This document shows, one piece after another, positions 1 through 22,258 of a stretch of 64,000 nt of DNA. Both the position numbers and the translations under genes were made by a program. The stretch comes from an uncultured Chloroflexia bacterium (GTDB lineage: Bacteria; Chloroflexota; Anaerolineae; JAAYZQ01). Each line of letters starts with the position of its first letter. Within the stretch, counting starts at the first letter, position 1. The notes under the pieces were generated by a model. That model saw only the letters and a list, made by a program, of their open reading frames with translations, was not told where the DNA came from and did not search any database. The stretch spans positions 1,568,001 through 1,632,000 of the forward strand of contig CAVOXA010000010.1 of NCBI GenBank assembly GCA_963700285.1. The letters are read 5' to 3'.

Positions 1-3000
1 ACAAACGACAAGCCATCATTCTTTGACAGACCGTTGGCAGAGGTTCTAAAACCCAACTGGGAAAAGGCCATCTACCTCGTCATCTTTGTCCTGGCTGTGG
101 CCAGCCGCTTCTGGGATCTAGGAGCGCGGGTCATGAGCCACGACGAGAGTCTGCACGCGCTCTATTCCTACTACCTGTACAACGGATCTGGCTACGTCGC
201 ACAACCCCATGATGCACGGCCCCTTTCTCTTTCACGCCAATGCCCTGATTTACTTTCTCTTTGGCGACAACGACTTTCACGGCCCGGATTGTACCCGCCC
301 TCTTTGGCGTGTTCATGGTCATGAGCCCGCTGCTGCTGCGCCGCTGGCTCGGTCGGGTGGGGGCTATCATCACCGCCATCTTGCTGCTGATCTCGCCCTC
401 GTTTCTCTACTACTCGCGCTATATCCGCAACGACATCTATATCGCCGTCTGGACCATCGTGCTCATTGCCGCCCTCTTTCACTTCATGCAGGAGCCGCAA
501 GCCGGGCTGGTTCTATATGGGCGCGGCGGTGCTCATGTTGTCGCTGGCAACCAAGGAGAATGCCTACATCTTTGGCTTCATCGGCCTGCTCTATATCATC
601 GAGGTGTATCCTCTGGGAAAGGGTCAGCCGCCGGAATCAACTCTGGCTCTACATTGGCGGCGCGGCGCTGAGCCTGGTTTTGTTGCTCGCGGCCTATTTC
701 CTGGGACGCTCGCCGGGAGAAGCGGCCGAGGCCGCCGAAGGGGTCGCAGGCGTGCCAGAAGCTAGTACTAAGCGTTGTCACCGTGGTGGGAGGCACTCTG
801 CCAGCGGTCCTGATCAGCGCCAGTCTGATCCGCTCTCGCCATCCCACGGCCCAGCAGCATCGAAGAGGCGCTCCGTTCGCTTTCCTGGCAGGATTGGCTC
901 ATCGCCCTCGTCGTCATGTTTGTCATCTATGCCCTGCTGTTCACCACCTTTTTTACCAACCCGGTAGGACTGGGCACCGGCGTCTTTGGCTCCATCAGCT
1001 ACTGGCTGGCCCAGCAAGAGGTCCAGCGAGGCGGACAGCCCTGGTATTACTATTTCCTTGTACTGACCATGTACGAGCTTTTTGCCATTCCTGTTCAGCT
1101 CAATTGCTACGGTATTCTACCTGGTTCGCAGCCTGCTGCCGCAGCCTGAGGAGGCGGGAGCCCGGCCCCTTCTGATGAAATATTGCCATCCGAGGCACAG
1201 CCCTCCGAAGAGCGACTGCTAGAGGATCCAACCGCAGTTGAGGGCATGCCCGCCGCTCAACCGGAACGCGATGGTTTGCTTTCAAATGCCTCCGACGCCC
1301 GCTTTGTCGCCTTTTTGATCTTTTGGAACATCAGCACACTCTTTATCTATAGCTGGGCCGGGGAAAAGATGCCTTGGCTGGTCCTCCATCCGGTTCTACC
1401 CATGATCGTGCTCACCGGCAAGTTTGCCGGGGACCTGTTCGAAAAAGTGGATTGGCGGGCTGTCTGGCAGCGTGGCGGGGCATTGCTGGCCCTGTTGCTG
1501 CCCATCACGCTCTTTGGCCTGGTTACCTTGGTCAAACTACAGCCCTTCCAGGGCCTTTCGATCTTTAAGCTGCAGGAGACGGGCAACTGGCTCGCCGCGC
1601 TGTTGGTAACGCTGTTGTTGCTGGCCCTTACGGTGGTGGTCATCAGGCGGGTGGGGGCCAGATACTCGCATCCTGGTCACCCTGGGTACCCTGTTGATCT
1701 TTTTAGGGTTCTTTACCGTGCGCTTTGCCTGGATGGCAGCCTATATCAACTATGACTATGCCACAGAACTCCTGGTCTATGCCCACGGCGCCGCCGATGC
1801 CAAACCTACCATGAACGAGATAGCCGACATCTCCCAACGCACAGTAGGCGACAAGATGATCGAAGTAGCCTACGACAGCGACGTGACGTGGCCGCTAGAG
1901 TGGTACATGCGCGAGTATCCCAACCAAAAGTTTTACGGCGAAACACCCACCCGCGAGAACCTGGACGTGCCCGTCGTCCTGGCCGGGGACAAGACCGATT
2001 CCAAGGTCCAGCCCTTCCTGGGCGACCGCTACTATCGTTTCAAGCGGCGGTTGGTATGGTGGCCCAACCAGGAGTATATGGGCCTGACCTGGGAGCGGAT
2101 CGGCGACATCCTGACATCGCCGGAAAAGCGCGAGATCCTGTGGAAGATCCTCTACTTTCGCGAGTACCCGCGCACCCCCGACGATTGGTACCACGTCCAC
2201 AATATGTACCTCTATGTGCGCAAGGACGTTGCCCAGCAGCTCTGGGACTTATGGCGCCGTGCCGCCGGAAGCCATCGAGATGCTGCCTGACCCCATAGGT
2301 CGAGGCCACGCCAGGAGCTGCTCACTGAGCAGGTGTGGGGCACGGTGGGCACCGATGCCGGCCTGTTCAACCACCCCCGGGGCGTGGCCGTTGGGCCAGA
2401 AGGCAACGTGTACGTGGTGGACTCGGACAACCACCGGGTACAGGTTTTTGACGCCAGCGGCACCTTCCTGCGGTAGTGGGGCAGCAACTGCAACCTGGCC
2501 ACCGGCACCGGCTGCGTCGATCCGGATGGCGATGGGCCGTTGGCCATGGGCGATGGCCAGTTCCAGGAACCGTGGGGCATCACCGTCTCCAAGACTGGGC
2601 GCGTCTACGTTACCGATACCTGGAACCATCGCATCCAGGTCTTTGACTCGGAAGGTACCTTCCAGGACAAGTGGGGAACCTATGGCCAGACCGATACCGC
2701 GACGAGCCTGCTGTACGGACCCCGCGACATCGCCATCGACGATTCGGGCCGGATGTTCGTTACCGATACAGGCAACAAGCGTATCATGGTCTTTGCCCAG
2801 AATGGCAGCTACTTGGATCAGTGGGGCGGGGGCGGCATGCTCCGGGCCAGTTTGAGGAACCGGTGGGCATTGACGTAGGCGCGGAAGGCAACATCTATGT
2901 GGCCGATACCTGGAACCAGCGGGTTCAGGTCTTTGACAGCGATCTGGTTCCCCTGCGTGAGTGGCCGGTGGAGGCCTGGTACGGCGAGTCGGTGCTGAAC

Positions 3001-3231
3001 AAGCCCTATCTTGCCGTGGATGACCAAGATCGGGTGTACATCACCGACCCGGAGGGCTACCTGGTCATCGTCTACAGCAACGAAGGGGAGCTGCTGGCGA
3101 CCTTTGGCCAGTTTGGCTACGACGACGCGTCTTTCGCCCTACCCACCGGCATCGATGTGGATGGTGAGGGCTATATCTATGTGACCGACACCGACGGGCA
3201 GCGGGTGATGAAATTCGAGCCGTTGCCCTGA
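1..3231 (+). CDS. Membrane GT-C-type glycosyltransferase (TIGR03663/Agl23-like) fused to C-terminal NHL-repeat beta-propeller; 5'-partial and frameshifted
   Basis: Consecutive fragments RFWDLGARVMSHDESLHA, MMHGP, PSFLYYSRYIRNDIY, YWLAQQEVQRGGQPWYYY, YSWAGEKMPW, TWPLEWYMR, then NHL repeats (FNHPRGVAVGPEGNVYVVDSDNHRVQVFD; FQEPWGITV..VYVTDTWNHRIQVFD). Frame is open from base 1. Several frameshifts and one in-frame TAG at 2474. Confidence 0.75.
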
Positions 3232-3785: not shown

Positions 3786-4094
3786 ATGAAACGCACGACG
3801 ATGGCAGTTGCCCTGATCGGCCTGCTCCTACTGGCTGGGTCGGCACTCGCCCAGACGGGTAGAAGCTTTGACCTGTCGTGGCACACGGTGGACGGAGGTG
3901 GGGCCTTAAACCTGACGGGTCTCTCAGACCCGTCAGGTTTTGGTTTTGCGCTGGGCGGGACGACGGGCCAGCCCGATGCCGGCCTGCTGTCGGGCGGAGG
4001 CATGACCCTCGGTGGTGGATTCTGGGGTGGGGGGGCCGCCGTCCTGCCACCGCCAGGTGGGTACGAGGTCTATCTGCCTGTCGTGCAAAAGTGA
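3786..4094 (+). CDS. Small secreted Gly-rich protein with C-terminal YLP motif (copy 1)
   Basis: ATG 3786 after GGGGGTGG. Signal peptide [22 protein letters not shown], core [27 protein letters not shown], ends YEVYLPVVQK. Confidence 0.85.
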   Translation: MKRTTMAVALIGLLLLAGSALAQTGRSFDLSWHTVDGGGALNLTGLSDPSGFGFALGGTTGQPDAGLLSGGGMTLGGGFWGGGAAVLPPPGGYEVYLPVVQK

Positions 4095-4189
4095 GTGGGC
4101 AGAGATGCAAGGGTTGAGGCTCTGCGTCTCTTGGCAGCCGCGAATCTCGAAATGGTAAAGAGCCCTTGAGCAAGAAAAGGAGGAGAAAG

Positions 4190-6642
4190 ATGGCAGGGAA
4201 ACAGATGATCGGCAGCGTGACGCTGGTGGTGCTGCTACTCAGCTTGGTGGCTGGCGCCACCTTTGCCCAGGACCAGGCGCCTGTGAGGGCGCCCCTGGCC
4301 CCGGCCTTTACCTACCAGGGCCGGCTGGCGGACGGCAGCGGGCCGGTGACGGACACCTGCGATTTTGCCTTCCGCCTCTACGATCAGGCGGGCAGCGGCA
4401 GCCCACCCACAGGGGGCACGCTCCTGGGCACAGAGACGGCCAAGGGGGTGGCCGTGGTCGGCGGCCTGTTCACTGTTTTCCTGGACTTTGGGGCAGGGGC
4501 CTTCCAGGGCCAGGCGCGGTGGCTGGAGGTGGAGGTGGATTGCGGCGATGGCGGAGCGACGCTGAGCCCGCGGCAAGCGCTGACGGCAGCGCCCTATGCG
4601 CTGTGGGCCGTGGGGGCGGGCAGCGCGCCGTGGGGGGGTCTGAGCGGGGTTCCGGCGGGCTTTGCCGACAGCCAGGACAACGATGCGCTGGGCGGGCTGC
4701 GGTGCGGCAGTGGGCAGGTGCCCCAATGGGATGGCAGCGGCTGGGTGTGCGCCGGCGGGGGCACGGCCTACAGCGCCGGGACGGGTCTGCGCCTGGCAGA
4801 GGCCAAGTTCAGCCTGTCGACGAGCTACCGCCTGCCCCAGACCTGTGCCGATGGCGAGATCGCCCAATGGGACAAGGCCAACGAGGTTTGGGTCTGCGGC
4901 ACGGACGACGCGGCAGGCCACACGGCAGGCAACCAGCTCAGGCTGGAAGGCACGGCTTTCCACGTGGTGGAGGGCGCGGGTTCAGGGTTGGATGCGGACC
5001 TGCTGGATGGGCAGGAGGGCGCCGCCTACCAGGCGCGGGTGAGTGGCGCCTGCCCGGCGGGCCAGAGCATCCGCGTCGTCAACGCCGACGGGACGGTGGT
5101 CTGCGAGGCGGACAACGATAGCGGCGGGGACATCACCGCCGTGACTGCCGGGACCGGGCTCAGCGGGGGTGGGGCAAGCGGGGCGGTGACGCTGTCCGCC
5201 GACACAACCTATGTGCAGCGGCGGGTGAGTGGCAGTTGCGCGGCAGGCAGCAGCATCCGCGTGGTACAGGCCGACGGAACGGTGATCTGCGAGACGGACG
5301 ACACAGGGGTGAGCGGCTCGTTCTGGTCGCTGGCGGGCAACGCCAGCACCACGCCAGGTATAGATTTCCTGGGAACGACCGACAACAAGGCCTTGGAGCT
5401 AAAGGTGAATGGCGAGCGTGCGCTGCGCCTGGAACCGGCGGCGGCAAGCCCCAACCTGATCGGGGGCCACAGCTCCAACCTCATCGGCAGCGGGGTAGCT
5501 GGCGCCACCATCGGCGGCGGGGGGAGCGCCGGCGCCACCAACCGCGTGCGCGGCCCCTACAGCACGGTCGGCGGGGGCGAAAACAACGAGGCTGGCGCGT
5601 CCTTCGACGGGGGTGTGAATTCTTTTGCCACGGTTGGTGGAGGCGACACCAACACCGCCAGCGGCGGAGCCGCTACCGTCGGCGGAGGTGAGAGCAACGA
5701 AGCAGCGGGCTCCCACGCCACGGTCGGCGGGGGCCAGGGGAACTCAGCCCTCAACACCCATGCCACAGTCGGCGGCGGTTTTGGAAACACGGCGAGCAAC
5801 TCCTACACCACCGTGGCAGGGGGCGGGGGCAACGACGCCGGGGCTTCAGGTGCTACTGTGGGCGGTGGCACAGAGAACATTGCCAATGGGAGCAGGGCTA
5901 CTGTAGGGGGGGAGAATGGAACCAAGCCCTCTCCAGCCATACCACCGTATGTGGCGGCCGAGAGAACGAGGCCAGCCAGGAAAGTGCCACGGTCGGCGGG
6001 GGCGCGGGCAACACGGCTAGCGGAAAATATGCCACCGTCCCCGGAGGATCTATGAATCTGGCCGCCGGCCAGTATAGCTTTGCCGCCGGTCAGATGGCCC
6101 AGGCCAACAACCAGGGCTGCTTCGTCTGGAGCGACGCCATTACGGGCTATACCACCTGCAGCACCGACAACCAGACTATCTTCGGCTCTACCGGCGGCTT
6201 CTACATCTACACCAGCACCGGTAGTCCACCCTCGGGCCTGTATCTTGCCGCCTCAGGCAGCGCCTGGAATGTGCACAGTGACCGCGAGGCCAAGGAGAAC
6301 TTGGAGGCCGTGGACAATCAGGCCCTCCTGGCCAGACTGGGCCAGATACCTATGACAACTTGGAACTACAGAGCTCAAGACCCATCCATCCGCCACATTG
6401 GGCCGATGGCTCAGGATTTCAATGCGCTGATTGAGGGCCTGGGCGGCGAAGGAGAGGGCTACATCAACAGCCTCGACGCCGACGGCGTGGCGTTGGCTGC
6501 CATCCAGGGCCTGTACATCCAGAATCAGGAACTCTCGGCTGAGAACGCGACACTTTGGCAGCAGATGGATGACCTGGAGGCGAGGCTGGCGGCCCTGGAG
6601 GCGATACTGGCGGCGCAGGCCGCGACAGGGGGCGAACAATGA
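4190..6642 (+). CDS. Secreted tail-fibre-like protein with C-terminal peptidase S74 intramolecular chaperone (fibre 1); one frameshift near 5910
   Basis: RBS AGGAGGAG, signal peptide, N-domain [43 protein letters not shown], Cys-containing repeats (C..G.SIRVV.ADGTV.CE), ATVGGG..N.A repeats, then [27 protein letters not shown] and a coiled coil. Confidence 0.8.
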
Positions 6643-7831
6643 AACGCACAGCGATGGCTGCAGCTTTCATCGCTCTCCTCCTGCTGGCTGGCTCGGCCCT
6701 GGCTCAGACCGGTGGCGACTATGACCTGTCATGGTACACGGTGGACGGCGGCGGCGCGCTGGATCTGGTGGGGCACCCAGAGCCATCGGGCCCTGGGTAC
6801 ACGCTGGGCGGGACGACGGGCCAGCCCGATGCCGGCCTGATGGCGGGCGGAGGCTTGACCCTCGGCGGTGGATTCTGGGGTGGTGGGGCCGCTCCGCCGC
6901 TACCGCCCGGCGGGTACGAGATCTATCTGCCTGTCCTGCTAAAGTAGGTGGGCAGGCAGGCATGCAGGGCGTGAGACTTCAGACCCCGAGAGCCAGCAGT
7001 CGTGAAAAAGGCACAGCACGCTCGAGTGCGAAGAGGAGGAGAAAGATGACGAGAAAACAGATGGTCGGTACTGTGACGCTGGTGGTACTCTTGCTCAGCC
7101 TGGTGGCCGGCGCCGGCTTTGCCCAGGAGGGGGTGACCGTGGGGGCACCTCTGGCCCCGGCCTTTACCTACCAGGGCCGGCTGGCGGACGGCAGCGGGCC
7201 GGTGACCGGCACTTGCGATTTCACCTTCCGTCTGTACGACCAGGCGGGCAGCGGCAGCCCACCCACAGGGGGCACGCTCCTGGGCATGGAGACGGCCAAG
7301 GGGGTGGCGGTGGTCGGCGGGCTGTTCACTGTCTTCCTGGACTTTGGGGCAGGCGCCTTCCAGGGCCAGACGCGGTGGCTGGAGGTGGAGGTGGATTGCG
7401 GCGATGGCGGAGCGACGCTGAGCCCGCGGCAAGCGCTGACGGCAGCGCCCTATGCGCTGTGGGCCGTGGGGGCGGGCGGCGCGCCGTGGGGGGGTCTGAG
7501 CGGGGTTCCGGCGGGCTTTGCCGACAGCCAGGACAACGATGCGCTGGGCGACCTGTCATGCGCCAGCGGTGAGGTGCCCCAATGGGATGGGAAAGGGTGG
7601 GCCTGTGCCGCCGGGGGTGGAGCCTACAGCGCCGGGACGGGACTGCGGCTGACCGAGGGCAAGTTCAGCCTCTCGACGAGCTACCGCCTGCCCCAGACCT
7701 GTGCCGATGGCGAGATCGTCCAATGGGACAAGGCCAACGAGGTTTGGGTCTGCGGCACGGACGACGCGGCAGGCCACACGGCAGGCAACCAGCTCAGGCT
7801 GGACGGCACGGCTTTCCACGTGGTGGAGGGC
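4295..7831 (+). repeat. Direct repeat of ~680 bp (4295-4975 vs 7151-7831) from duplication of the fibre module
   Basis: Near-identical nucleotide sequence at a constant 2856-bp offset, from CTGGCCCCGGCCTTTACCTACCAGGG to CACGTGGTGGAGGGC. Confidence 0.9.
6639..6947 (+). CDS. Small secreted Gly-rich protein with C-terminal YLP motif (copy 2)
   Basis: ATGA overlap with the fibre 1 stop. Paralogue of 3786..4094 ([27 protein letters not shown]), ends [10 protein letters not shown]. Confidence 0.88.
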
Positions 7832-9960
7832 CCAGGCTCCGGCCTGGATGCCGACTATCTCGACGGGCAGGAGGGCGCTGCCTACCAGGCCCGCGTCAGC
7901 GGCACCTGCCCGGTGGGCCAGAGCATCCGCGTCGTCAACGCCGACGGTACTGTCGTCTGCGAGACCGACGACGACACCGCCGACCATGGGGCGCTGGCCG
8001 GTCTGGCCGACGACGACCACCTGCAGTACTTCCACCTGGCGCAGAACGAGACAGTGGCCGGGCGGCCGGCCTTCAACGGAGGGACGTCGGGTTCGACAGC
8101 GCCCTTTAGCGTCGACAGCAACGCGGTGGTGGCGAACCTGAACGCGGACCTGCTGGATGGGCAAGAGGGCGCGGCCTACCAGGCCCGCGTGACTGGCACC
8201 TGCCCGGCAGGCCAGAGCATCCGGGTGGTGAACGCCGACGGGACGGTGGTCTGCGAGGCGGACGACGACAGCGGTGGGGACATCACCGCGGTGACGGCCG
8301 GGACAGGGTTGGGCGGCGGGGGGTCGGCCGGGGCGGTGACCCTATCGGCGGACACGACCTACCTGCAGCGGCGGGTGAGCAGTACCTGCCCGGCAGGCCA
8401 GAGCATCCGGGTGGTGAATGCCGACGGGACGGTGGCCTGCGAGGCGGACACGGATACCACCTACAGCGCCGGGACGGGGCTGGGTCTGACGGGTACGGCC
8501 TTCAGTGTGGCGCAGAGCTACCGGTTGCCACAGGGCTGCACCGGTGGCAAGATTGCAGAGTGGAACGGGAGTGCCTGGGTCTGTGCTGACGACGACAGTG
8601 GCGGGGACATCACAGCGGTGAACGCTGGAACGGGGCTCAGCGGCGGGGGGACCGAAGGATCGGTGACCCTGTCCGCCAACGTGGACTATTTGCAGCGCAG
8701 GGTGAGCGGCACCTGCCCGGCGGGTAGCAGCATCCGCGTGGTGCAGGCCGACGGGACGGTGATCTGCGAGACGGACGACACGGGGGTGAGCGGGTCGTTC
8801 TGGTCGCTGGCAGGAAACGCGGGCACGACGCCGGGCACCCACTTTCTGGGGACGACGGACAACAATGCCCTGGAATTCAAGGTGAACAGCGCGCGGGCGC
8901 TACGGCTGGAGCCTACGGAGTTGACGCCGAACTTGATTGGGGGCTATTTGGGCAATTCGGCGGATGCTGGTACGCAGGGGTGGTCATTGGGGGTGGCGGA
9001 AACCAAGGCGGCATCGTCCGCTGGCCCAGTGTGGGCGGCCCAAATCGAGTCACCGACGGCTACGGTACCATCGGTGGCGGGGTAGGGAACCGGGCGGGTG
9101 ATGCGGCCGGCGAGGCCTGGGACGCCAGCTATGCCACCGTGGGCGGCGGTGGACGGAACGAAGCTGAGGGTGAAGCGTCCACGGTGGGTGGCGGGGCGTG
9201 GAACTGGGCTAGCGGCGCATACTCGACCGTCGGTGGAGGACTGAGCAACAAAGCCACCGCCAATTATGCCACCATCGGTGGCGGTGGCCCCTCTGATGAG
9301 GCGGACGCATCTACGTCCAACCGTGTGACCGACAACTATGGCACAATCGGCGGCGGCGGGAACAACGTGGCGGGCGACGAGGCCGGGACAGATGCGCGCT
9401 ACGCAACAGTGGGTGGCGGTGGCTCGAATCGCGCCAATGCGGCGTACGCGACCGTCCCCGGTGGGCAAGGTGCACAAGCTGACCAGCACGGCCAGATGGC
9501 CTACGCCAGTGGCAGCTTTGCCGAGCCAGGTGATGCCCAGGCCGGGCTTTATGTGCTGCGTGCTGAGACAACCCCGGGTGTCGGACGGACCAGGCTATTC
9601 TTGGACGGCGCCGGTAAGGAGCTGACAATCGCCAGCGGCCGGACGGTGGCGTTCGACATCCTGGTCGTGGCGCGCAGCGAGGACAGCGAGTCCGCAGGCT
9701 ACACCATCCAGGGCGTGGTTGAACACCATGCACCTCCGGGAATTAGGTGGGAGTTTCGCTTCGTTGGTACTCCGAGCGTCACTACCCTCGCAGAGGACGA
9801 TCCGAGCTGGGGATTAGAGATCGAGATCAATTCTCAGGATGGGACATTATCCCTCTGGGCTCTTGGCGAGAGCAGCATCCGCGAGAGCAGCGTCCGCTGG
9901 GTGGCTACGGTGCGCACGTCGGAAGTAGCCCAGGAAGTGCCCCCACCCATCCTCCCGTAG
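7046..9960 (+). CDS. Secreted tail-fibre-like protein (fibre 2) with expanded repeats and a different, non-S74 C-terminal domain; frameshift near 8980
   Basis: RBS GAGGAGGAG, N-terminus nearly identical to fibre 1, four C..G.SIRVV.ADGTV.CE repeats, ATVGGG..N.A repeats, C-terminus [26 protein letters not shown]. Confidence 0.78.
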
Positions 9961-9977
9961 GACGGAGGGGTTAACAG

Positions 9978-10219
9978 TGTTCAATCACCGGCGCGGAGGA
10001 TTCTGGCTGGTCTTGGCGGCTGCCACGGTCACGCTCCTCCTGACAGGAATCGTCCTGGCCCCAAAAAGGAGGGCCCGAATAACCTGTCCTGGCATACGGT
10101 CGACGGCGGCGGGATGATGGATCTGACGGGCCTCTCAGGCCCTACAGGTGTTGGCTATGCGCTGGGCTGGCCAACCGTCCCGCCGTGTGGTCTTCTACCT
10201 GCTCCTGATCCTGCGTTAG
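9978..10219 (+). pseudogene. Degenerate third copy of the small YLP-motif protein
   Basis: GGAGGGG RBS then GTG, hydrophobic signal, LSWHTVDGGGMMDLTGLSGPTGVGYALG, internal deletion/frameshifts, ends FYLLLILR-TAG. Confidence 0.65.
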
Positions 10220-10253: not shown

Positions 10254-10574
10254 AGGGCAATTGCATTTGTCATTGCGAGTTCATCTATGGCGCGGGGTGC
10301 CACTCCATGCGGAAAAACTCGGCCCTCGGGAAGCCGTCATCCTGAGCGTAGCGAAGGATCTCGGTTGGGTGCAAGTGAGAGTCCCTTCGATGCTTCAGGA
10401 CAGGCATTCGCCTCCGCTGCGCTCTGGCTCAGAACATGTCCTGAGGGCAGCCGAAGGATGACGGGAGTCCAGTTTCTTGGTGGCGTCAGCGACGAAGCAA
10501 TCCCCAGAATCAGACATAGATTGCTTCACTTTGTTCGCAATGACAAACATTGGAGCCCCAAATGTAATTGCCCT
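10254..10574. repeat. Nested palindromic (REP/MITE-like) element
   Basis: Outer inverted repeat AGGGCAATTGCATTTG / CAAATGTAATTGCCCT (15/16). Inside: GTCATTGCGA..GAAGCAATC..GATTGCTTC..TCGCAATGAC. Inside that: GTCATCCT..AGGATGAC with a further CCTTCG..TCAGGACA / TGTCCTGA..CGAAGG pair. Confidence 0.75.
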
Positions 10575-10941: not shown

Positions 10942-13900
10942 ATGAAGATCGAAGGACTGACCTGGGGAGTTGGGTTGCTCGTTGCCCTGGTACTCTTGTG
11001 CTTGGTCCTGGCCGTGCAGCCAGCGACGGCCTACACGCAGGGGACTGCCCCGGCTGAGGGCCCCGATTGCGACAACCCACCCACGGGCGAGCGGGCGCGG
11101 CTGCTGGGAGACAGCGAGATCGCCATCACCTGGCGGGCCGACAAGTACAAAAACCTCGCCTACGCGAACATTGACGACGTAGGTGGAAACCTGGCCTGGG
11201 GGCATGTCTCGGATGACATGGTCCAGGAGTCCCTCCTCACAGACATCCGCTGGCCGGCGGCTGCTATGGCGGACGTGAACGGCGACGGCAAAGAGCAGAT
11301 GGTGCTCGCCTATCGGGACAAGGAACAGGGTGTGGGCGCGGCGTTGGTGGTCCCGCACACTGGCGGAACTCCTTCGAGCCTGAGTCTCTGGCTTGGTGGT
11401 CTGAGCGATAACCGTCAGGGCAAAAACGTGGCCTGGATCGACGTCGCGGCCGGCAACCTGAATGGGCACACGACCGGGGATAAGGATGACGAGATCGCCC
11501 TCGCCTTTGCCGACGACACCAACGCCCTACAGGTGCTGGTGCTGGGTGAGGAGTGGTTCAAAAACATTGGCCCCGAGCCCATGGCGGTCTACCGCGATCC
11601 CTCCACGCTGGGCCGGGGAAACGTCAAGTACGTAGCCGTGGCCACGGGGGACCTGGACGGCGATGGCTACGACAACGAGATCGTCGCCGCCTTTCAGGAC
11701 GGCAGCAAGCACCTCCAGGCCATCATCTTAAAGATGGAAGGAGGTACAGGCAAAGAGGGCACCCTGAAGCTGCTGTGGTCCAAGTCCTGGCAGGACCACT
11801 ACCGGCAGCCCGACGCGCAGAACGGCAATGCCAAGAACGCCCGGCCCGTCGACGTCACGACGGGCGACATCGACGGCGACTACCGCGACGAGGTCATCAT
11901 TGGCTTCCGGGACGGCGATCTGCACTTTAGCTCATACGGCACCGCCCAGCTTCTGGTCCTGGACCGCCAGCAAAGCGATGGGTCCTACGACGACAGTACT
12001 TTCATCCAGCGCAGCCCTGCCGACCTGTCCTGCTCCTCTCCTTATCCGCCCTCCGTGTCCCTGGCAGCCGGCGACCTGGATGGCGACGGGGCGGACGAGA
12101 TAGCCCTGGCCTACGCCGGGGTCTGCGCCTGCGGCGGGAAAGCGACGGTCCAGCTTGTGACCTACGAGGGGGCGCAGTTCAACCAGTGGGGCTGGCCAGA
12201 ACTGACCCTCACAGCTCGCCCTGGCCACTGGCAAAAGCAGGTCGGGACCTCGGGCAAGTTCACCACCTCCGGGCCGAGTCCCTTTTACTACCTGAGCGTG
12301 GACGCCGACGATCTGGACCGCGATGGAGAGGCCGAGATCGCGCTGGCCTATACCTCCGACGCGGGGGAGATCATCGTGCAGGCCTTTGACGCGGCCAGCG
12401 GCCTAACCCCGGCCGGTTCCATCGCATCCAAGTACAGCGGCGCCGATAAGGTCCAGGAATTTTGGCTGGCCGTGGGGGATATGGACGGGGACAGCCTGTA
12501 CAGCACCTACACGGGCAACTGTTACCAGGGCAAGGACCTGTACCCTTCGGGCCTGGTCCATGCCCCACCGCACTGGTCGGAGGATGAGCACAACAGCTCC
12601 CATGCCGACGCCGAGTTCAAGACGACGCTCAAGACGGAGCAGGGGGAAAAGCATACTAGCGAGACCGGCTATGGCGGCTCGGCGAAACTGGGGCTAGAAT
12701 TTGCCCACATCGGCTACTCTTCGACCTACGAGTTTGAAAAGTCCGTCGCCAATGAGAACGAGGTGTTGACGGCCATCATCGATTCGGTCGGGTCGGCCAC
12801 CTGCTCCCCCTTCTCCTGCGGGGACGACGCCTACTTTGAGGCCGTAGGATACAACATGTGCCCCCGCTGGTGCTTTGAGTACAAGGATGATGAAAAGGGC
12901 ACGCCGATCACGGTCTGTACCCCGCGTCCCGCCGATGAGTGTGAGGCGAACAAGGCCAACATCGATTACTGGTACGGGACCCTGCGGGCCAAGTACCCCG
13001 ATTCCTGGGTGCCGGTGGGCATGAACCTGGCCAGGAGCAAGCCGGCCGAACAATCCAGCACGGCCTACGATGGCGTGGCCTCGCGGGCCGTGGACGGGAA
13101 CACCGATGGCGACTATGCCAACGGCTCGGTCACCTTTGCTCAGGAGGGAACCAACCCCTGGTGGCAGGTGGACCTGGGCACAGCGCCCACCATCCACGCC
13201 GTTCAGCTCTGGAACCGGACCGATGGCGCCCCAGAGGTCCCGGCGCGGCTGTCCGATTTCTACGTCTTTGTGTCCAAGGATCCCTTTACCTCCACGCTCC
13301 CCGACGACACGGTGGCACAGCCGGGAGTGTGGCACTACCACCACCAGGAGGCGTCCGGGCAGCTGACGACCATCACCTTCAACGAACTGTTGGATCCCAG
13401 CGGCAATGCCCCCGAGGGGAGCGAGCAGGTACAGGGCCGCTACGTGCGCGTCCAGTTGGCGGGCGGCTACCGGAACCCCCTCTCCCTGGCCGAGGTCCAG
13501 GTTTGGGGCGCCCTGAGGGACGTGGATCAATGGCCTACCGAAAAGCCGGTGCCGGACCCGGACGGAGAAATCTTCACCATCAAACTGCGCGACGGGAGCC
13601 AGCAGGTGGTCGACGGCCAGCACGTCTATAGCTGGCAGGGCGCCAAGCTGGGCGTCAATCCAGGCGGCGCCGCAACCTGGAGCACGGCCCAGGATCAAAC
13701 CTGGGAACAAGCCACGGAATGGAGCACGGCAGCGACGAGCAAGCTCGGCCTGGAACTCGTCTTCATCGGCGGCGACTATGTCATGACCAGTAAGGAGGTC
13801 AAGTCCCGGATCATGCAATGGTCCAAGGAGACCGAATTCGCAGGTGCAGTGGGGCCGGTCCACGCAGACGAGGATAGCTACAACTATGCCCCGTACGTCT

Positions 13901-16143
13901 GGCTTCAGCAGGCGACTTCCAGTGCGGGGACCGAGCAGGCCTTCCTGGTCGTCGACTACTGGGTGCCCAGCCTGGGGCTGGCTGCACTGGCGGCAGACAC
14001 CACGCAGGCGGGCCCCCTGGTTGGTCTCACCCCCAGGGCTCCCCGTATCGACAGCCCTACCCATCCCGGCCCAAACGACTGGTACGCGGCCAACACGGCA
14101 ACCTTCAACTGGAAGCAACCCAATAGCGACAACGCCAAGGTAGTCGGCTACCGCTGGCACCTGGATGGGCTGTCCGACACCATCCCCGCCCCCTTTAGCC
14201 AGGGCCGGATCAAAACCGAGAGCTACGAGAACCTGGCTGATGGCATCTGGTACCTGCACGTGCGGGCCCTGGGTGACAATGGCCAGTGGAGCGAAACCGC
14301 CCACCATGCCATCCGCGTCGACGTCGAGGCCCCCCAGGTCGAACTATCGCTGGACCCGCCGCTGCCCACGGGCCACGACGACTGGTACAGAACGCCGGTG
14401 ACGGCAACCGTTGCTGCCACGGATGGCTTTGGCTCGGGCGTCACGGCGTTGAAAGTGAGCACCGACGGCGCGGCATGGCAGCCCTACACCGGCCCGTGGC
14501 GCTTTGAGGCCGACACGGCAGGAACCACCGTCTGGGCCCGGGCAACCGATGGCGCAGGCCATACCTCGGAGCCGGTATCGACCACCTTCAAGATCGACCA
14601 GACGCCGCCCACCTCCAAGGTCCCGGCTGGCGGGCCGATGCCCGGCGCCTGGATAGCCGAAGTCATGACCGACACGCTGGGCAACGATCACCTGGTACTG
14701 GCCGGCGTGATCGATGACGCCCACGCGGGCCGGGCAGGGCTGGATCTGCGGGCCAAGGGCCTCGATTGGATGTCGGCCAACAGCACCAGCGCGGGGGATT
14801 TACAGTTCGACGCCCCAGGCGTGGAGGTGCACTGGGTATACACGGCCACCAACGAGTTGGGCCGGGGAAACCACACCTTCTACGGACAGGCTCACGACCG
14901 GGCGGGCAACGTGGAGGACACTTATGAACTGGCCAGGGTTGTCTGGTTCCCCAAGAGCGCGCCCGACCTGGTCGGAAGCGACATGACAGTCTCGCCAGCA
15001 GTCGCCCGGCCGGGCGACGAGGTGGCCTTTGTCATCGCCGCGCGTAACGGCGGTTACCAGGAGGCCTGGGTGCAGGTTAGCGACAAGCTGCCCGCGGGGC
15101 TTTCGCCGGTAATGGATGGCCTGGGCAACGACGTGACCTACGATCCAGTTACCAATACCATTACCTGGCCGTCCCGGTTGCTGTGGCCGGGTGAGTGGGT
15201 CCGGCTGCGCTTCTGGGCGCAGGTGGACGGCGGCGCGGGGGCCGCTACCCTGGAGAACCAGGCCACGGCCCGCGCCTTCTGGCCCAACAGCGGAGATCTG
15301 CCAGAGGCCGAGCGCCAGCGCTTCGCCGATAGGGAGCGGACGGTGAACCTGAGCGCCACGCTGACTGTGGCCCCGGGCCTGGCGGCCGGGACTGACGTCA
15401 CGGCACCCTGGGCCAGTCTGGAGGTGCTCAGTGGGCAGGCCGTGAGCCAACGGGAGGTGCAACTGGCCATCCAGGCCCCCTCCGACGCCAGCCGGATGTA
15501 CCTGCGCGAGTGGACCCTGTCTCCGGATACCGGCGCCTGGGCCGTTGTCCGGAACAGCGGCTGGCTGGCCTACAGCCGGACACACACTTGGACCCTTTCA
15601 CCGGGGAACGGAGTCAAGTACCTGGGCGTCTGGGTGGCCGACGAAGCGGGGAACGTCTCGATCCTGGACGAGCACAGCCTGGCTTTCACCAACCTGGTAG
15701 GTGGCAGCCAGAGCCTGGCGGACGGGCAGCGGGCCCAGTACCGCTTTGAGGTTCGCCAGCACGCGTTTGCCGGCGCCTACGTGGCCGCGCTGGGGGGCGA
15801 TCCGGACCTGTACGTCTGGATGCCTCGCCATGCCTTCCGGCCCTCCCACTTTAGCAATGGCACAGGGACGGTGGATGAGGTTAGTGGCTGGGTACAAGAG
15901 CCGGGCATCTGTCTGCTGGAGGTCGCAGCCGTGGGCGACAGCCGGTATGAGCTGCGCCTGCGCGAGTTCGATGCCCTGGAGGCCGGCGACCAGGCCCAAG
16001 GCACGATGCTTTCGCTCGCCGAAAAGGCACGGCCCATGCACCCCCTGACTGTCTCCGATCCGCTGAGCGCGGGTCCGGTAAAGCCGCCCGCATCCGGGGG
16101 AGGCATCGAGATCTATCTACCGCTGGCCTTCAGGAAGGGATAG
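10942..16143 (+). CDS. Giant secreted multidomain protein: FG-GAP/VCBS repeats, F5/8 type C (fucolectin-like) domain, Ig-like and DUF11-like domains, C-terminal YLP motif
   Basis: AAGGAGG RBS, signal peptide, repeated GD[LI]DGDG.DE motifs, NLARSKPAEQSST..ASRAVDGNTDG..PWWQVDLG..QLWNRTD..GRYVRVQL..LSLAEVQV, ARPGDEVAFVIAARNGG..VSDKLPAGL, ends IYLPLAFRKG. Intact 1733-aa ORF. Confidence 0.85.
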   Translation: MKIEGLTWGVGLLVALVLLCLVLAVQPATAYTQGTAPAEGPDCDNPPTGERARLLGDSEIAITWRADKYKNLAYANIDDVGGNLAWGHVSDDMVQESLLTDIRWPAAAMADVNGDGKEQMVLAYRDKEQGVGAALVVPHTGGTPSSLSLWLGGLSDNRQGKNVAWIDVAAGNLNGHTTGDKDDEIALAFADDTNALQVLVLGEEWFKNIGPEPMAVYRDPSTLGRGNVKYVAVATGDLDGDGYDNEIVAAFQDGSKHLQAIILKMEGGTGKEGTLKLLWSKSWQDHYRQPDAQNGNAKNARPVDVTTGDIDGDYRDEVIIGFRDGDLHFSSYGTAQLLVLDRQQSDGSYDDSTFIQRSPADLSCSSPYPPSVSLAAGDLDGDGADEIALAYAGVCACGGKATVQLVTYEGAQFNQWGWPELTLTARPGHWQKQVGTSGKFTTSGPSPFYYLSVDADDLDRDGEAEIALAYTSDAGEIIVQAFDAASGLTPAGSIASKYSGADKVQEFWLAVGDMDGDSLYSTYTGNCYQGKDLYPSGLVHAPPHWSEDEHNSSHADAEFKTTLKTEQGEKHTSETGYGGSAKLGLEFAHIGYSSTYEFEKSVANENEVLTAIIDSVGSATCSPFSCGDDAYFEAVGYNMCPRWCFEYKDDEKGTPITVCTPRPADECEANKANIDYWYGTLRAKYPDSWVPVGMNLARSKPAEQSSTAYDGVASRAVDGNTDGDYANGSVTFAQEGTNPWWQVDLGTAPTIHAVQLWNRTDGAPEVPARLSDFYVFVSKDPFTSTLPDDTVAQPGVWHYHHQEASGQLTTITFNELLDPSGNAPEGSEQVQGRYVRVQLAGGYRNPLSLAEVQVWGALRDVDQWPTEKPVPDPDGEIFTIKLRDGSQQVVDGQHVYSWQGAKLGVNPGGAATWSTAQDQTWEQATEWSTAATSKLGLELVFIGGDYVMTSKEVKSRIMQWSKETEFAGAVGPVHADEDSYNYAPYVWLQQATSSAGTEQAFLVVDYWVPSLGLAALAADTTQAGPLVGLTPRAPRIDSPTHPGPNDWYAANTATFNWKQPNSDNAKVVGYRWHLDGLSDTIPAPFSQGRIKTESYENLADGIWYLHVRALGDNGQWSETAHHAIRVDVEAPQVELSLDPPLPTGHDDWYRTPVTATVAATDGFGSGVTALKVSTDGAAWQPYTGPWRFEADTAGTTVWARATDGAGHTSEPVSTTFKIDQTPPTSKVPAGGPMPGAWIAEVMTDTLGNDHLVLAGVIDDAHAGRAGLDLRAKGLDWMSANSTSAGDLQFDAPGVEVHWVYTATNELGRGNHTFYGQAHDRAGNVEDTYELARVVWFPKSAPDLVGSDMTVSPAVARPGDEVAFVIAARNGGYQEAWVQVSDKLPAGLSPVMDGLGNDVTYDPVTNTITWPSRLLWPGEWVRLRFWAQVDGGAGAATLENQATARAFWPNSGDLPEAERQRFADRERTVNLSATLTVAPGLAAGTDVTAPWASLEVLSGQAVSQREVQLAIQAPSDASRMYLREWTLSPDTGAWAVVRNSGWLAYSRTHTWTLSPGNGVKYLGVWVADEAGNVSILDEHSLAFTNLVGGSQSLADGQRAQYRFEVRQHAFAGAYVAALGGDPDLYVWMPRHAFRPSHFSNGTGTVDEVSGWVQEPGICLLEVAAVGDSRYELRLREFDALEAGDQAQGTMLSLAEKARPMHPLTVSDPLSAGPVKPPASGGGIEIYLPLAFRKG

Positions 16144-16235: not shown

Positions 16236-19200
16236 GTGAAGAAAAGTGCGTACTGGTTCCTTAACGTTGTTCTCTTGTTGGCGTTGGTCCTGGGCAGCGC
16301 GATGATGCCTGCCCAGGTCCTGGGGGAAGATCTGAGCAGGACAGTGGCGGCCGGCGCTGCCACCGGGGCCGCGGCGCCGGGCGCATCCTTGGGCGTGCCG
16401 CCGCTGGAACTGACCGTGACGGGAGATGCACCGCTGCAAGTCCCATTCAAGCTAGATCTGGAGATGATGTTGGGGCCCTATTCCAACCAGAACACCTATC
16501 GCCTGGACCAACCTGCTTCCTGGGGGAGCCCCGGATTCGTGGAACAGACGGTCTCTCGCAGCGATGTCGCCGCAGTGCCGGTCGGTGGCGAGCGTTTCCT
16601 GGCGGTCTGGATGGATGACGTCGCTGGGGCCCTGCGTGCTTTTGTCGGGTGGCCCCAGTCCGACTATCCTGGCGTCGCCACCAACCTTGGCTTGAAGGCG
16701 AAGGGCAATTCCGTCCTGGCGCCCCTCACGCCGGATCTGGTTCTCGCCCTGGCCAGAGACACGGGCGATTTCGTCCAGTTCCGGTGGTGGCAAGGGACGG
16801 AAGGTGACCCTTGGGTGGGGGCCTGGCAGCAGGTGCCGGGCAACTACCGGGTGGGATCGGACCTGGCCGCCGTCGCCAAGGACTCGAGCCACGTTGCCCT
16901 CTTTTTTCGCGACAGCGGGAGCGGGACGGTCAAGTTCACCGAGTGGCAGGCCGGCGTCGACTGGCGCTCCGAACCGATCGACCTGGGCAACCCGCCTGGC
17001 ACGCAGATTGTGTCGGAACTGGCTGCCGTGTCGCGCAACGAGCGGCACCTGGCCGTCTTTGGCGTAGGCCAGGACAACGTGCTGTATTGTCGGGAGTGGA
17101 CCAATCTTAACAAATCGGACTGGAGCGATACGGCCTGGACCCAAGTGCTGCCCCACGTCTGGAACAACGGCCGTATCAGCGCCGCCTCTCGGCACAACAA
17201 CCACATGGCCGTCGCCGTGATTCGGACCGATCGTTCGGTTGCCTACCAGGAGTGGCTGGCCGCAAGCGGCTGGAGCAACCCGCAGGCTCTGGGCAACCCC
17301 GGCTTTCCTCCCACCCAGGCGCCCACCATCGCCGTCTCTGCCATCGACACCATGATCTTTCTGGGGGTGGACAGCGGCGGCACGCTAAAGCGGAACGTGT
17401 GCGGTCCCGCTCCGGGCAAATGCTCAGGCTGGACCAATTGGACGGATATGTGGCAGCCCGATCAGCATGTGGCGGCTGCCGTCAGACGGCCGCACGACCT
17501 GATCGTCCTAGGGCGGGCATTGCCCGAGTTTCCCTGGAGCAACCGGGTTTCGTTCGTACAGTACACCCGCGAATTCGTTAACCCCGTACCGCGGGCGGTG
17601 GGTGCTAATCACAACTGGGCCGATATCAACGGACAGGTGATCGCCACGGTGCAGGGCAAGACCATCTGGGTTGACGTTTGCCCAACGTCCACCTACGGGT
17701 GCCAGATGGCTGCGGCCGAGACAAGCAACTGGTCGGTGAGCGGCTGGGCGCAGTTGGACAACGGGCTGTGTGATGGCACAGGGCGGAGTGTCGCCGTGGA
17801 CGCGGGGGACCTGGACGGCGACGGCGACGACGAGGTTGTGGTGGTCACGCCGGTCGGCCAGTCGATCGACACCTCGGTGGTGCAGATCGGCTACCAGGGC
17901 ACGCCGGCCCTGAGGCTCACCCCGAGCAGAAGAAGAGACAGGCGCTGGGGGAGGGCTCTGAACCTCAGCAAGTCGACGTGGCCATTGGCGACCTGGACGG
18001 CGATGGCCGCAAGAACGAGGTCGTCGTGGCCTACAACACCACGCCTGGCCGCGCACGAGCACGGGACGATCGGCGTGTATCTGTACCAGTACCAGGACGA
18101 TCAGGGCCTTCAGCTTCAGGGACAACCGCAATCCTTCTCCCCCTGGACCGAGGGGGACCAGCCCCCGGCTACTGTATGGGATTTTGAGATCGCCGTGGGC
18201 AAGGTCCGCGCCACTGCTGACAATCACGAGCAGTTGGTACTGGCGAGTTGAGGGGCTGTGCCAGGCAAGAAGCAGTGGTACGGTGTTGATTGGGAAGCCT
18301 ACCTCTACGAGTGGGCTGAAGGACCAACGCGGGGACAGGAGACTGGTCGAGATAGAGCAGCAATACGGACTCGGGCCCGGTTGAGCCCAGAGGAGGCGAT
18401 TGGCCATGCGGTCGGACCTATTCCATCGCCCTGGCGACCGGCGATCTGGTACGGCGACGGGTTGGAAGAGGTCGTTTTCTCGCATCCCCTCGGCTCTACA
18501 CCAGTGCCGAGATCTGGCTTCCCGGGAGTATCTCATCAAGAACGGTATGAAGCTGCCGTCCGACTCCTGGCCGTGGGCGACATCGACGGGGACAGCCGGG
18601 CCGAGATCGCTCAGGTTCACCGATCTCTCTGCAGGCACCCTGGAGATCATCGATTGGGCCGATGTCCCGCATGACGTCAGAATATCGGGAGTATTCACCA
18701 ACACCCACCTGTACGTGACCGGCCAACTCGTGGGCTTCAAGGGGGTGCCGCTCCTCGCCGACCTGGATAACGACTCGCTGCAGAGCCGAGCTGAGAGAAT
18801 GCGATGACTACAGCGACGTGAATGTGATCGCGGTGGTCAACGGCGTGCCCCGCTACTACGAGGACGACGAGCCGATGCAGGAGAATGGTGGAGGATATGC
18901 CACAGGCAACACCAACATAGACGGGCCGAGGAGAACGGCACAACGGCATTCTATGGGGGCTCCGTCGCGATGGGCTACAGAAGGAGGTTCAAGGACGGCT
19001 TGTATTCAAGGGCTGAGTGTCAAAGCGGAGGCAGAGTTCCTGGGCAGAACCGGCCAGTCCACCGAGACGGAGACGAGCACCAAGAGGAGAGGGGCGAAGT
19101 TCGAACCAGGAGACCGTGGTATCGTGGTCTATCGGCTCCTCGAGCTACAAGTGCTGCCCTTCGACGCCTACTACCCCTCGGCGCCGGACGACAAGTCCAC

Positions 19201-22154: not shown

Positions 22155-22258
22155 CCGGCGCAACCGGGGAGGGGAGCCTGGCGCTCTCCTCCCCCTGCGA
22201 TGGCAAGCTGGAGCCCTATGCCCGGCTTGAACAACGAGCAAACCCAGGAGGCTGCCCC

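Follow-up and report, generated by a model that had tools for sequence, protein, structure and literature searches.

The window (the whole stretch of 64,000 nucleotides that was analysed) probably encodes three-chain surface fibres together with small adaptor proteins, in which the adaptor clamps the base of one fibre, a YLP tail on the adaptor fastens the pair to the envelope, and the fibre serves as an adhesin (estimated probability, about 0.75). Binding of the adaptor to the fibre was predicted by complex modelling; we infer that the YLP tail anchors the pair at the surface and that the fibre is adhesive. The genes and their parts are as follows.

3786..4094, + strand: S1 adaptor, 102 aa, with signal peptide, three-repeat core, and YLP-box tail
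4190..6642, + strand: F1, putative trimeric fibre, ~817 aa when read across a frameshift
4295..4639, + strand: F1 base domain ([14 protein letters not shown]); Ig-like beta-sandwich and adaptor docking site, both predicted
4703..5290, + strand: F1 stalk, four Cys-paired repeats
5504..6050, + strand: F1 head, 15-residue ATVGGG..N.A repeats, UspA1-like (3pr7, E 1.6e-13)
6277..6642, + strand: F1 S74 intramolecular chaperone (PF13884), starting from SDREAK and followed by a likely coiled coil
6639..6947, + strand: S2 adaptor, 102 aa, ATGA-coupled to the F1 stop, with YLP tail
6705-6890, + strand: S2 core; the Leu codons at the centres of its repeats lie at 6726, 6804, and 6861
7046..9960, + strand: F2, fibre paralogue, ~971 aa across a frameshift
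7151-7495, + strand: F2 base domain
9978..10185 (about), + strand: S3, adaptor remnant with several frameshifts

The gene order given in the preliminary description (small, fibre, small, fibre, and small remnant) was found again, with starts at 3786, 4190, 6639, 7046, and about 9978, respectively, and the ATGA coupling reported there is an overlap at 6639-6642. S1 and S2 both contain the conserved core (motifs LSW.TVDGGG / GTTGQPDAG / GGFW) and the YLP tail, and the fibres contain the conserved [15 protein letters not shown] domain and Cys-paired stalk repeats, as had been described. The head repeats, previously put at ~14 residues, had a measured period of 15 residues. An S74 domain with an SDxxxK site had been ascribed to the fibres in general; it is present in F1 (PF13884, E 8e-11, site at 6277) and absent from F2. 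The accompanying argument that S74 self-cleavage would remove any C-terminal anchor consequently applies to F1 and not to F2. S1 and S2 share 75% identity, and 835 of the opening 931 nucleotides of F2 match F1. S3 retains its leader plus roughly one and a half repeats and has lost repeat 3 and the YLP tail. The leaders of S1, S2, F1, and F2 were judged by eye to be signal-peptide-like, those of the fibres being hydrophobic with AxA sites.

Each fibre consists of a signal-peptide-like leader, a beta-rich N-domain (~130 aa), a stalk, a head, and a tip. The F1 base domain was modelled as a seven-strand sandwich (pLDDT 82). Foldseek gave no match within E 0.001 for this model, fold comparison returned generic Ig-like sandwiches only (best Z 7.4), and a search of the ESM Atlas returned unnamed clusters only. 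F2 has a longer stalk than F1, with eight Cys pairs, a UspA1-like head (3pr7, E 3.4e-19), and a non-S74 tip of ~150 aa for which no family match was obtained. Weak Pfam matches to NfeD, DUF3797, and EGF_Tenascin in the stalk were set aside as repeat-driven chance matches. The mature fibre lacks a membrane anchor and a sorting tail, and no Pfam or NCBIfam family of C-terminal beta-barrel anchors matched the C-terminal parts, that of F1 being S74 plus coil. Solved relatives of the F1 head and S74 parts are trimeric; in this study, the base was the part modelled as three copies.

A YLP-type C-terminus was found in 112 of 120 small proteins and in 0 of 120 fibres; the fibres of the window had been described earlier as lacking a YLP tail. 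S1 passed the NCBIfam YLP-box model NF053834 with 13.9 bits against a cut-off of 10; S2 carries the motif, yet was unlisted by that scan. This genome has 40 YLP-type tails. NCBIfam labels the YLP-box families (NF053834 and NF050076) as a 'putative sorting motif', and no paper on the YLP-box was found in an open-access search. The tail that follows the core varies by lineage, comprising a YLP-box in the window and, in other phyla, dockerin-like, T9SS-type, and MYXO-CTERM forms or a lipoprotein-like leader, and some cores open long multidomain proteins (1,040 residues beyond the core in L046). No fused adaptor-fibre protein was present among 257 stored proteins, a weak negative because the search for longer forms yielded only 17.

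The core, 55 residues long, consists of three repeats, each with a Leu residue (Leu8, Leu34, and Leu53) that is 91-94% conserved. Complex modelling covered the S2 and F1 pair at a 3:1 ratio of fibre to adaptor. The S2 core with three F1 N-domains scored 0.87 (0.86, 0.87, and 0.87 in individual runs), whereas the best score among three controls was 0.01; the interaction of the small protein with a fibre N-domain trimer, put forward earlier, was therefore predicted. Of 157 solved pairs, 116 attained the score mark, as did 2 of 215 mismatched ones; these counts serve only as a rough guide for a 3+1 job with our own alignments. The three runs shared at least 95% of contacts, with a partner pLDDT of 85-86. 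In the model, the FTYQGRL strands of the three fibre chains are each contacted by a separate core repeat, fibre Leu11 of the three chains touches adaptor Leu8, Leu34, and Leu53, and the whole core (residues 1-62) lies within an interface of ~300 contacts. Modelled alone with another program, the core reached a pLDDT of 57; the quality of this monomer model was insufficient for a fold search. No similar complex was found in the PDB, either by sequence or by base-domain fold.

The two families tend to occur in the same genomes. The pattern lies well outside chance, with 638 relatives of the small protein and 647 relatives of the fibre N-domain found. Among 201 Chloroflexota genomes, the fibre domain occurred in 23 and the core in 21, and all 21 were among the 23, so that the expected co-occurrence beyond this locus was observed. 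At 78 loci, 69 of 89 cores had a fibre within 5 kb, and 15 of the remaining 20 had less than 3 kb of upstream DNA. The small gene stood directly behind a fibre in 51 of the 89 cases and directly in front of one in 9; the conserved unit is usually a fibre gene followed by a small gene. The pairs in the window are therefore F1-S2 and F2-S3 remnant, with S1 as an extra. S1 has no fibre upstream, and its partner may be F1, F2, or a partnerless fibre on contig C9, the third fibre of the genome, which has no adjoining small gene. The link spans four phyla (Chloroflexota, Planctomycetota, Armatimonadota, and Acidobacteriota), among which tails and tips vary, and divergent fibres adjoin divergent three-repeat modules. 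Pairing is not strict: two genomes hold 18 fibres versus 4 cores and 9 versus 4, and 19 of 68 fibre matches had no core within 4 kb. In 101 Planctomycetota genomes, the fibre domain was found in 20 and the core, with a narrow profile, in 3. With a wider profile, 20 fetched Planctomycetota loci gave a module above background in 9, a weak one in 4, and none in 7; this search missed the hand-picked modules L113 and L114. No module scoring at least 9 bits accompanied three related fibres from Acidobacteriota.

The modelled contact and the gene linkage could be read in other ways. The genes might merely adjoin because both encode surface proteins and share a promoter, with no contact and with the complex as an artefact, since structure models can place chains side by side and some fibres have no neighbouring core. 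We consider this very unlikely in view of control scores of 0.01 or less, the threefold repeat in register with the threefold fibre, and a link retained across four phyla while tails and tips change. The small protein might also act only transiently, nucleating the folding of the fibre or escorting its export; it would lend its sorting tag and then be let go, and the fibre would be shed or held by other means. This is unlikely but fits several observations: several genomes hold more fibres than cores, and the modelled trimer had a pLDDT of 92 with the partner versus 85 with unrelated partners. T9SS-type tails, moreover, are export signals as well as anchors. On the other side, the inclusion of the entire core in the interface speaks for a durable complex, retention is indicated by the MYXO-CTERM and dockerin-like tails, and cores heading long multidomain proteins, as in L046, are unlike a catalytic chaperone. 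Stable mounting of the fibre on the adaptor accordingly remains our preferred reading.

The fibres could also belong to a prophage, tailocin, or eCIS, with the small gene as a fibre-assembly factor. The S74 part of F1 matched PHROGs tail-fibre families (E 1.6e-6 to 2e-4), and S74 is reported for eCIS fibres too (PMC12923769). This reading is nevertheless largely refuted and has a negligible probability: both the small protein and the fibre have signal-peptide-like leaders, the base domain had no match in 50,697 phage records, a search of this 89% complete genome gave no tail-sheath gene, and phage structural families were matched by 0 of 5 scanned neighbouring proteins. Viral contigs gave no confirmed instance of the small-protein or fibre family, a weak negative obtained with exact short patterns. 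The eCIS study places ~90% of eCIS fibres behind baseplate genes, and the fibre genes here are not set among baseplate, tube, and sheath genes. With no prophage, tailocin, or eCIS sign, the earlier view of a non-phage system was upheld, and the complex model, the co-occurrence, and the missing phage signs together support its proposal that the small protein would hold the fibre by its N-domain.

The state of this copy was also considered. F1 and F2 are each split by a one-base frameshift, in the G-runs 5906-5912 and 8977-8980, respectively. With S3 decayed as well, the system might be real elsewhere and dead here, both fibres being pseudogenes. We regard this as quite improbable: both breaks are one G short within a G-run, nearby genes and the C9 fibre are broken too, a pattern expected of long-read error, and S3 differs from F1 and F2 in having lost whole parts. 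An independent metatranscriptome contig, ~99% identical, has one extra G at the F1 break, but only 15 letters flank it on the left, which makes this support weak. The one-base frameshift is a likely assembly error in F1, with this weak support, and a candidate one in F2. Two RNA-library contigs matched F1 and F2, which does not amount to a demonstration of transcription. Only small shares of the stretch were represented in the sequencing runs.

Several known systems share features with the proposed pair. Moraxella UspA1 (PDB 3pr7, 3ntn) and other trimeric autotransporter adhesins have the 15-residue beta-roll head repeats and the trimeric plan proposed here; unlike UspA1, the window fibres have no detectable C-terminal beta-barrel anchor and show reversed polarity: the base is N-terminal, the head lies nearer the C-terminus, and a second protein bears the putative anchor. 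The use of a separate protein to carry or cap a trimeric fibre, or to provide an envelope anchor, is familiar from gp38 of T-even phages, which sits on the gp37 trimer tip, from Bacillus BxpB, which holds the BclA collagen-like trimer, and from cohesin-dockerin pairs, which anchor scaffoldins. No sequence or fold match to gp38, BxpB, or cohesin-dockerin was obtained from the libraries searched. F1 shares S74 with SDxxxK with phage tailspikes and tail fibres (PF13884), and docking of the trimer on a partner by an N-terminal domain, predicted here, is a feature of phage fibres and of eCIS fibres with eBAP anchors (PMC12923769 for the latter); unlike these, the window fibres appear to be exported, have no particle genes, and carry a base domain absent from the phage collections searched.

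A likeness in overall plan was also seen to the mosaic adhesive trimer (MAT) fibres that Caulton et al. (2024, PMC10769870) described in Bdellovibrio bacteriovorus, in which a signal peptide precedes a conserved beta-rich N-domain and a long stalk, as also found here, and tips are interchangeable, with S74 forms (as in F1) and other independent domains (as in F2). The MAT model NF053851 was matched by the N-domains of 47 of the 76 close members and of 18 of the 19 divergent ones, with a best E of 2.5e-10. However, the window fibres fell below its cut-off of 60 (18 and 17 bits; 23 for the domain alone), the best relative reached 40, and the head is UspA1-like. The MAT capping-loop motif V-G-G/N-x-x-x-P-x-x-x-L had no strict match in F1 or F2 and one loose look-alike near residue 141. 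A scan of this genome and 14 controls with NF053851 gave no match and was uninformative. The fibre base is thus distantly related to the MAT N-domain and falls beyond the curated limits of that family. No partner for the N-domain is named in the MAT paper, which leaves the bound surface element to be identified and states the attachment of anchorless trimeric fibres to the cell as open (PMC10769870); unlike MAT fibres as published, those in the window have a partner gene alongside.

Adaptor N-termini matched positions 7-81 of the PamT profile NF058579 (E 1.8e-7 for L112 and 4e-4 for P0004). The best match had 31 bits, far short of the cut-off of 240, and it takes in part of the signal peptide. 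In the portion of the preprint at hand (Troman et al. 2026, PMC13278184), PamT is the tip pilin of the CPR Pam pilus, a single Ig-like domain with no fibre-binding role given, and a tail fibre-like gene stays near the pam operon in CPR. Neither a pilin nor a chaperone nor a pam operon was seen here. While the fibre half resembles already known fibres, the adaptor and its anchoring route had no match in the libraries and open-access literature searched.

The following sequence of events is proposed. Adaptor and fibre would leave the cell by Sec, as their leaders suggest. The fibre would trimerise, F1 likely by means of an S74 chaperone that then cuts itself off, a mechanism taken from MAT fibres (Caulton 2024, PMC10769870); F2 has a non-S74 tip. 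The adaptor core, predicted to be poorly folded alone, would fold on binding, each repeat lying on the FTYQGRL strand of a different chain in a 1:3 symmetry match; strand pairing is suggested by the contact register. The tail, which is exchanged among lineages, would act as the envelope address, and the variable head and tip may bind a surface ligand, given their likeness to UspA1 and MAT fibres.

More broadly, the three-repeat module could be a universal socket that plugs fibres with this base domain into the sorting system of any lineage (YLP-box, dockerin, T9SS, MYXO-CTERM, or lipid), and it could also be the element by which Bdellovibrio-type MAT fibres are held at the surface, and form the N-terminus of CPR PamT, fixing a trimeric tail-fibre-like adhesin to the tip of the pilus; taken jointly, these three proposals are tentative and on balance doubtful. 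The adaptor-fibre pair itself gives the attachment of anchorless fibres a candidate partner, a model at residue level, and a predicted 3:1 ratio, and would be a route of trimeric-adhesin display distinct from autotransport, chaperone-usher, and sortase pili. Because fibre and anchor would be separate genes joined by a symmetry-matching peptide, tips and anchors could be swapped independently across envelope types. The module also offers a handle on the putative YLP-box signal. A cultured carrier is Herpetosiphon aurantiacus DSM 785, with Haur_5099 and an unannotated adaptor gene.

The window (contig C10, positions 1568001–1632000) comes from a genome of 7.05 Mb that is 89% complete, and both the order of small gene, fibre gene, small gene, fibre gene and degenerate small gene and the ATGA coupling at 6639 were found in the window as the preliminary description had reported.

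Features of the locus (window coordinates)
34–3231: membrane protein gene, split into at least five frames
3786–4094: S1, small adaptor gene
4190–6642: F1, fibre gene
6639–6947: S2, small adaptor gene, ATGA overlap with the end of F1
7046–9960: F2, fibre gene
about 9978–10185: S3, small-gene remnant
10255–10573: 319-base element directly behind S3, with 15-base imperfect terminal inverted repeats
10942–16143: large secreted multidomain protein with a YLP tail at its end
about 16236–24124: large secreted multidomain region, broken into several frames

S1 and S2 shared 75% identity, and 835 of the first 931 bases were common to F1 and F2. Named relatives of both proteins were mostly from Anaerolineae or Chloroflexota, so that the host probably belongs to the same phylum. 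A G-run in each fibre gene was one base short. At the F1 break, a metatranscriptome contig of approximately 99% identity carried one more G, but only 15 letters lay on the left, below the bridging threshold; the F2 break was outside the reach of any near-identical piece. The frameshifts are likely to be assembly errors, because genes around the fibres are likewise broken, and the splitting of the membrane protein gene is a sign of a high assembly indel error rate. The C-terminus of this membrane protein presumably consists of NHL-like repeats. FG-GAP, F5/8 type C, OmpL47-like and DUF11 domains were found in the two large secreted products, and the region has the look of a cluster of surface-protein genes. 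Internal parts of the 319-base element were found at 10 further places in the genome, and these parts had high depth in one sequencing run; the element may be a MITE or REP-like sequence whose insertion truncated S3.

In both fibres, a signal-peptide-like leader is directly followed by a base domain some 110 residues long. Its predicted fold is a seven-strand Ig-like sandwich (pLDDT 82), and no close solved relative was found for it (Foldseek, none at E 0.001; best Z, 7.4; best sequence E, 0.08). Cys-paired stalk repeats follow (four pairs in F1 and eight in F2), and then head repeats, which matched the head region of UspA1, a trimeric autotransporter, with E values of 1.6e-13 and 3.4e-19. The ATVGGG..N.A repeats described earlier were thus recovered, with a period of 15 residues rather than about 14. 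The S74 domain attributed to the fibres held for F1, which ends in this chaperone (SDREAK at 6277), and was not found in F2, which ends in another domain without a family. Both fibres lack a membrane anchor as well as a YLP tail. The earlier claim that YLP tails belong to the small proteins and not to the fibres agreed with the relatives, where such ends occurred in 112 of 120 small proteins and 0 of 120 fibres. Some fibres, among them L109:5878-7950 and the proteins P0143, P0147, P0152, P0177, P0194, P0198 and P0239, have a hydrophobic helix and basic tail after the S74 region; of the 120 fibres, eight were flagged for it, seven of them clear cases, and F1 lacks this feature. Such precursors might be membrane-tethered until self-cleavage and then passed to the adaptor.

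No Pfam family or solved relative was found for the small protein, which has 638 relatives. Its core is built from three GG.Y.L repeats, whose Tyr and Leu are conserved at 80–91% and 91–94%, respectively, depending on the repeat. Modelled alone, the core folded poorly (pLDDT 57). The preliminary description had proposed that the small protein holds the fibre by its N-domain, and a predicted complex of three F1 base domains and one S2 core agreed with this, scoring 0.87 against 0.01 for the best control. In calibration, 116 of 157 solved complexes attained the score mark, as did 2 of 215 mismatched pairs; these figures are only a rough guide for a 3 + 1 prediction with custom alignments. Modelling covered the S2–F1 pair at the 3:1 ratio; at least 95% of contacts agreed between runs, and partner pLDDT was 85–86. 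In the model, Leu11 of the FTYQGRL strand from three separate chains contacts Leu8, Leu34 and Leu53 of the core, which we read as antiparallel strand addition because the adjacent residues are in reverse register. The model supports binding of the S2 core to the F1 base-domain trimer.

We propose that both proteins would be exported by Sec, that the fibre trimer would fold (in F1 with S74 assistance and self-cleavage), that the three-armed core is predicted to capture the trimer base while its tail would attach to the envelope, and that the head and tip may bind a ligand. S74 self-cleavage is reported for Bd3182 in the part of PMC10769870 consulted. We assign this mechanism as a whole a probability of roughly 75%. 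The main rival, in which the small protein would be only a passing escort or chaperone, seems improbable. As for envelope attachment by the core's tail, the ends of the cores differ among phyla. Chloroflexota cores end in the YLP-box, which NCBIfam labels putative and on which, as a protein anchor, no publication was found in the literature searched. In Planctomycetota and Armatimonadota, the cores carry dockerin-like pairs at their ends; NF041540 matched 8 of 12 scanned cores of this kind below its cut-off and the core of locus L120 above it (55 bits). The tails of the L068, P0243 and P0245 cores exceeded the cut-off for a T9SS-type sorting domain, and that of the L110 core exceeded it for MYXO-CTERM. 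The L117 core, by eye, forms the last part of a protein that resembles a lipoprotein. Judged from sequence, a constant binding module with interchangeable envelope tags is how an adaptor should look. The window's own genome has 40 reading frames with a YLP-type motif at the end, and one match resembles a T9SS tail (C1:1720023-1720250).

The two families co-occurred beyond this locus. In an even sample of 201 Chloroflexota genomes, the base domain was present in 23 (13 of 122 genera) and the core in 21 (11 genera), and all 21 were among the 23, counts in which related genomes are not independent. At least 45 of 60 core matches lay within 4 kb of a same-strand fibre match (40 behind and 5 in front), and at least 49 of 68 fibre matches had a core within 4 kb, both counts being lowered by short contigs. 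Among 89 cores in the best 78 GTDB loci, 51 immediately followed a fibre, 9 immediately preceded one and 9 were within 5 kb; for 15 the upstream DNA amounted to less than 3 kb, and 5 had no fibre near. In 81 Acidobacteriota genomes, the fibre was found in 13, the core in 10 and both in 8, and both core-only matches were at contig ends. Of the five fibre-only genomes, two had a divergent module directly upstream, scoring 16 and 12 bits, and none was found in the other three. Where an Acidobacteriota fibre lacked a scored module, a lipoprotein-like gene lies upstream of it (L133:5078-5684, L134:4592-5183 and in L135), and the C-terminal end of this gene's product resembles, by eye only, the C-terminal module of L117.

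In 101 Planctomycetota genomes, the fibre domain, mostly weak, was found in 20 and the core in only 3, which counts against a link between core and fibre. Across 20 loci from 16 genomes, 12 candidate modules were picked by eye. When each was scored by a leave-one-out procedure, 10 of the 12 picks ranked first among the frames of their locus, eight at 12 bits or more, against a background best of 11.1 bits over 103,114 frames of the window's genome. Among the unpicked loci, one reached 27 bits and two reached 8–9 bits; nothing scored in the other five, three of which reach contig ends. Since divergent modules were found in the rescored loci, the shortfall is partly divergence and partly unexplained.

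The system had been described as non-phage, and the fibres are very probably not a phage part. A prophage or tailocin locus was looked for: a search of the 89% complete genome for a sheath gene was negative, none of 50,697 phage records matched the base domain, and viral contigs gave no confirmed member of either family. PHROGs matches were confined to the F1 head and S74 part, one F2 stalk repeat and an esterase-like neighbour.

The fibre belongs to a known kind, differing in form. Its overall plan, the use of tips with or without S74, and a related N-domain are shared with the mosaic adhesive trimer (MAT) fibres of Bdellovibrio, and their profile NF053851 was matched by 47 of 76 and 18 of 19 base-domain members (best E, 2.5e-10). 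However, F1 and F2 fall short of its cut-off and lack the capping-loop motif, and we therefore do not class them as MAT. The MAT paper (PMC10769870) names no partner for this N-domain and states that the surface element to which it binds is still to be identified. The rows of its Table S3 that were consulted list Oligoflexia, FCB-group and OP3 proteins, and no Chloroflexota or Herpetosiphon entries were found in that file. No anchor is named in the consulted part of a 2026 review (PMC13689555). Adaptor N-termini (L110, and L112 with an E of 1.8e-7) were matched by positions 1–80 of NF058579, the profile of CPR PamT, and the consulted part of the Pam preprint (PMC13278184) states that a tail fibre-like gene stays near the operon; the connection is a lead only. 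The three-repeat adaptor and its anchoring route appeared in no library scanned and nowhere in the literature searched.

Two genomes have more fibres than cores (18 against 4, and 9 against 4), and no adaptor gene was found near a third fibre of the window's genome (C9:313580-316028), which has a base domain, S74 and several frameshifts. Adaptors therefore probably act in trans, and the third fibre could use S1 in this way. At L137 (G322:C2:2636000-2652000, another genome), four tandem fibre genes precede just one adaptor, which is extended by 454 residues, so that several fibres may share one type of adaptor. A cultured carrier makes the stated question of fibre anchoring directly testable: on plasmid pHAU01 of Herpetosiphon aurantiacus DSM 785 (CP000876.1), an unannotated 95-residue adaptor gene (L109:7947-8234) overlaps the stop of the fibre gene Haur_5099, and its product ends in a YLP-type tail.
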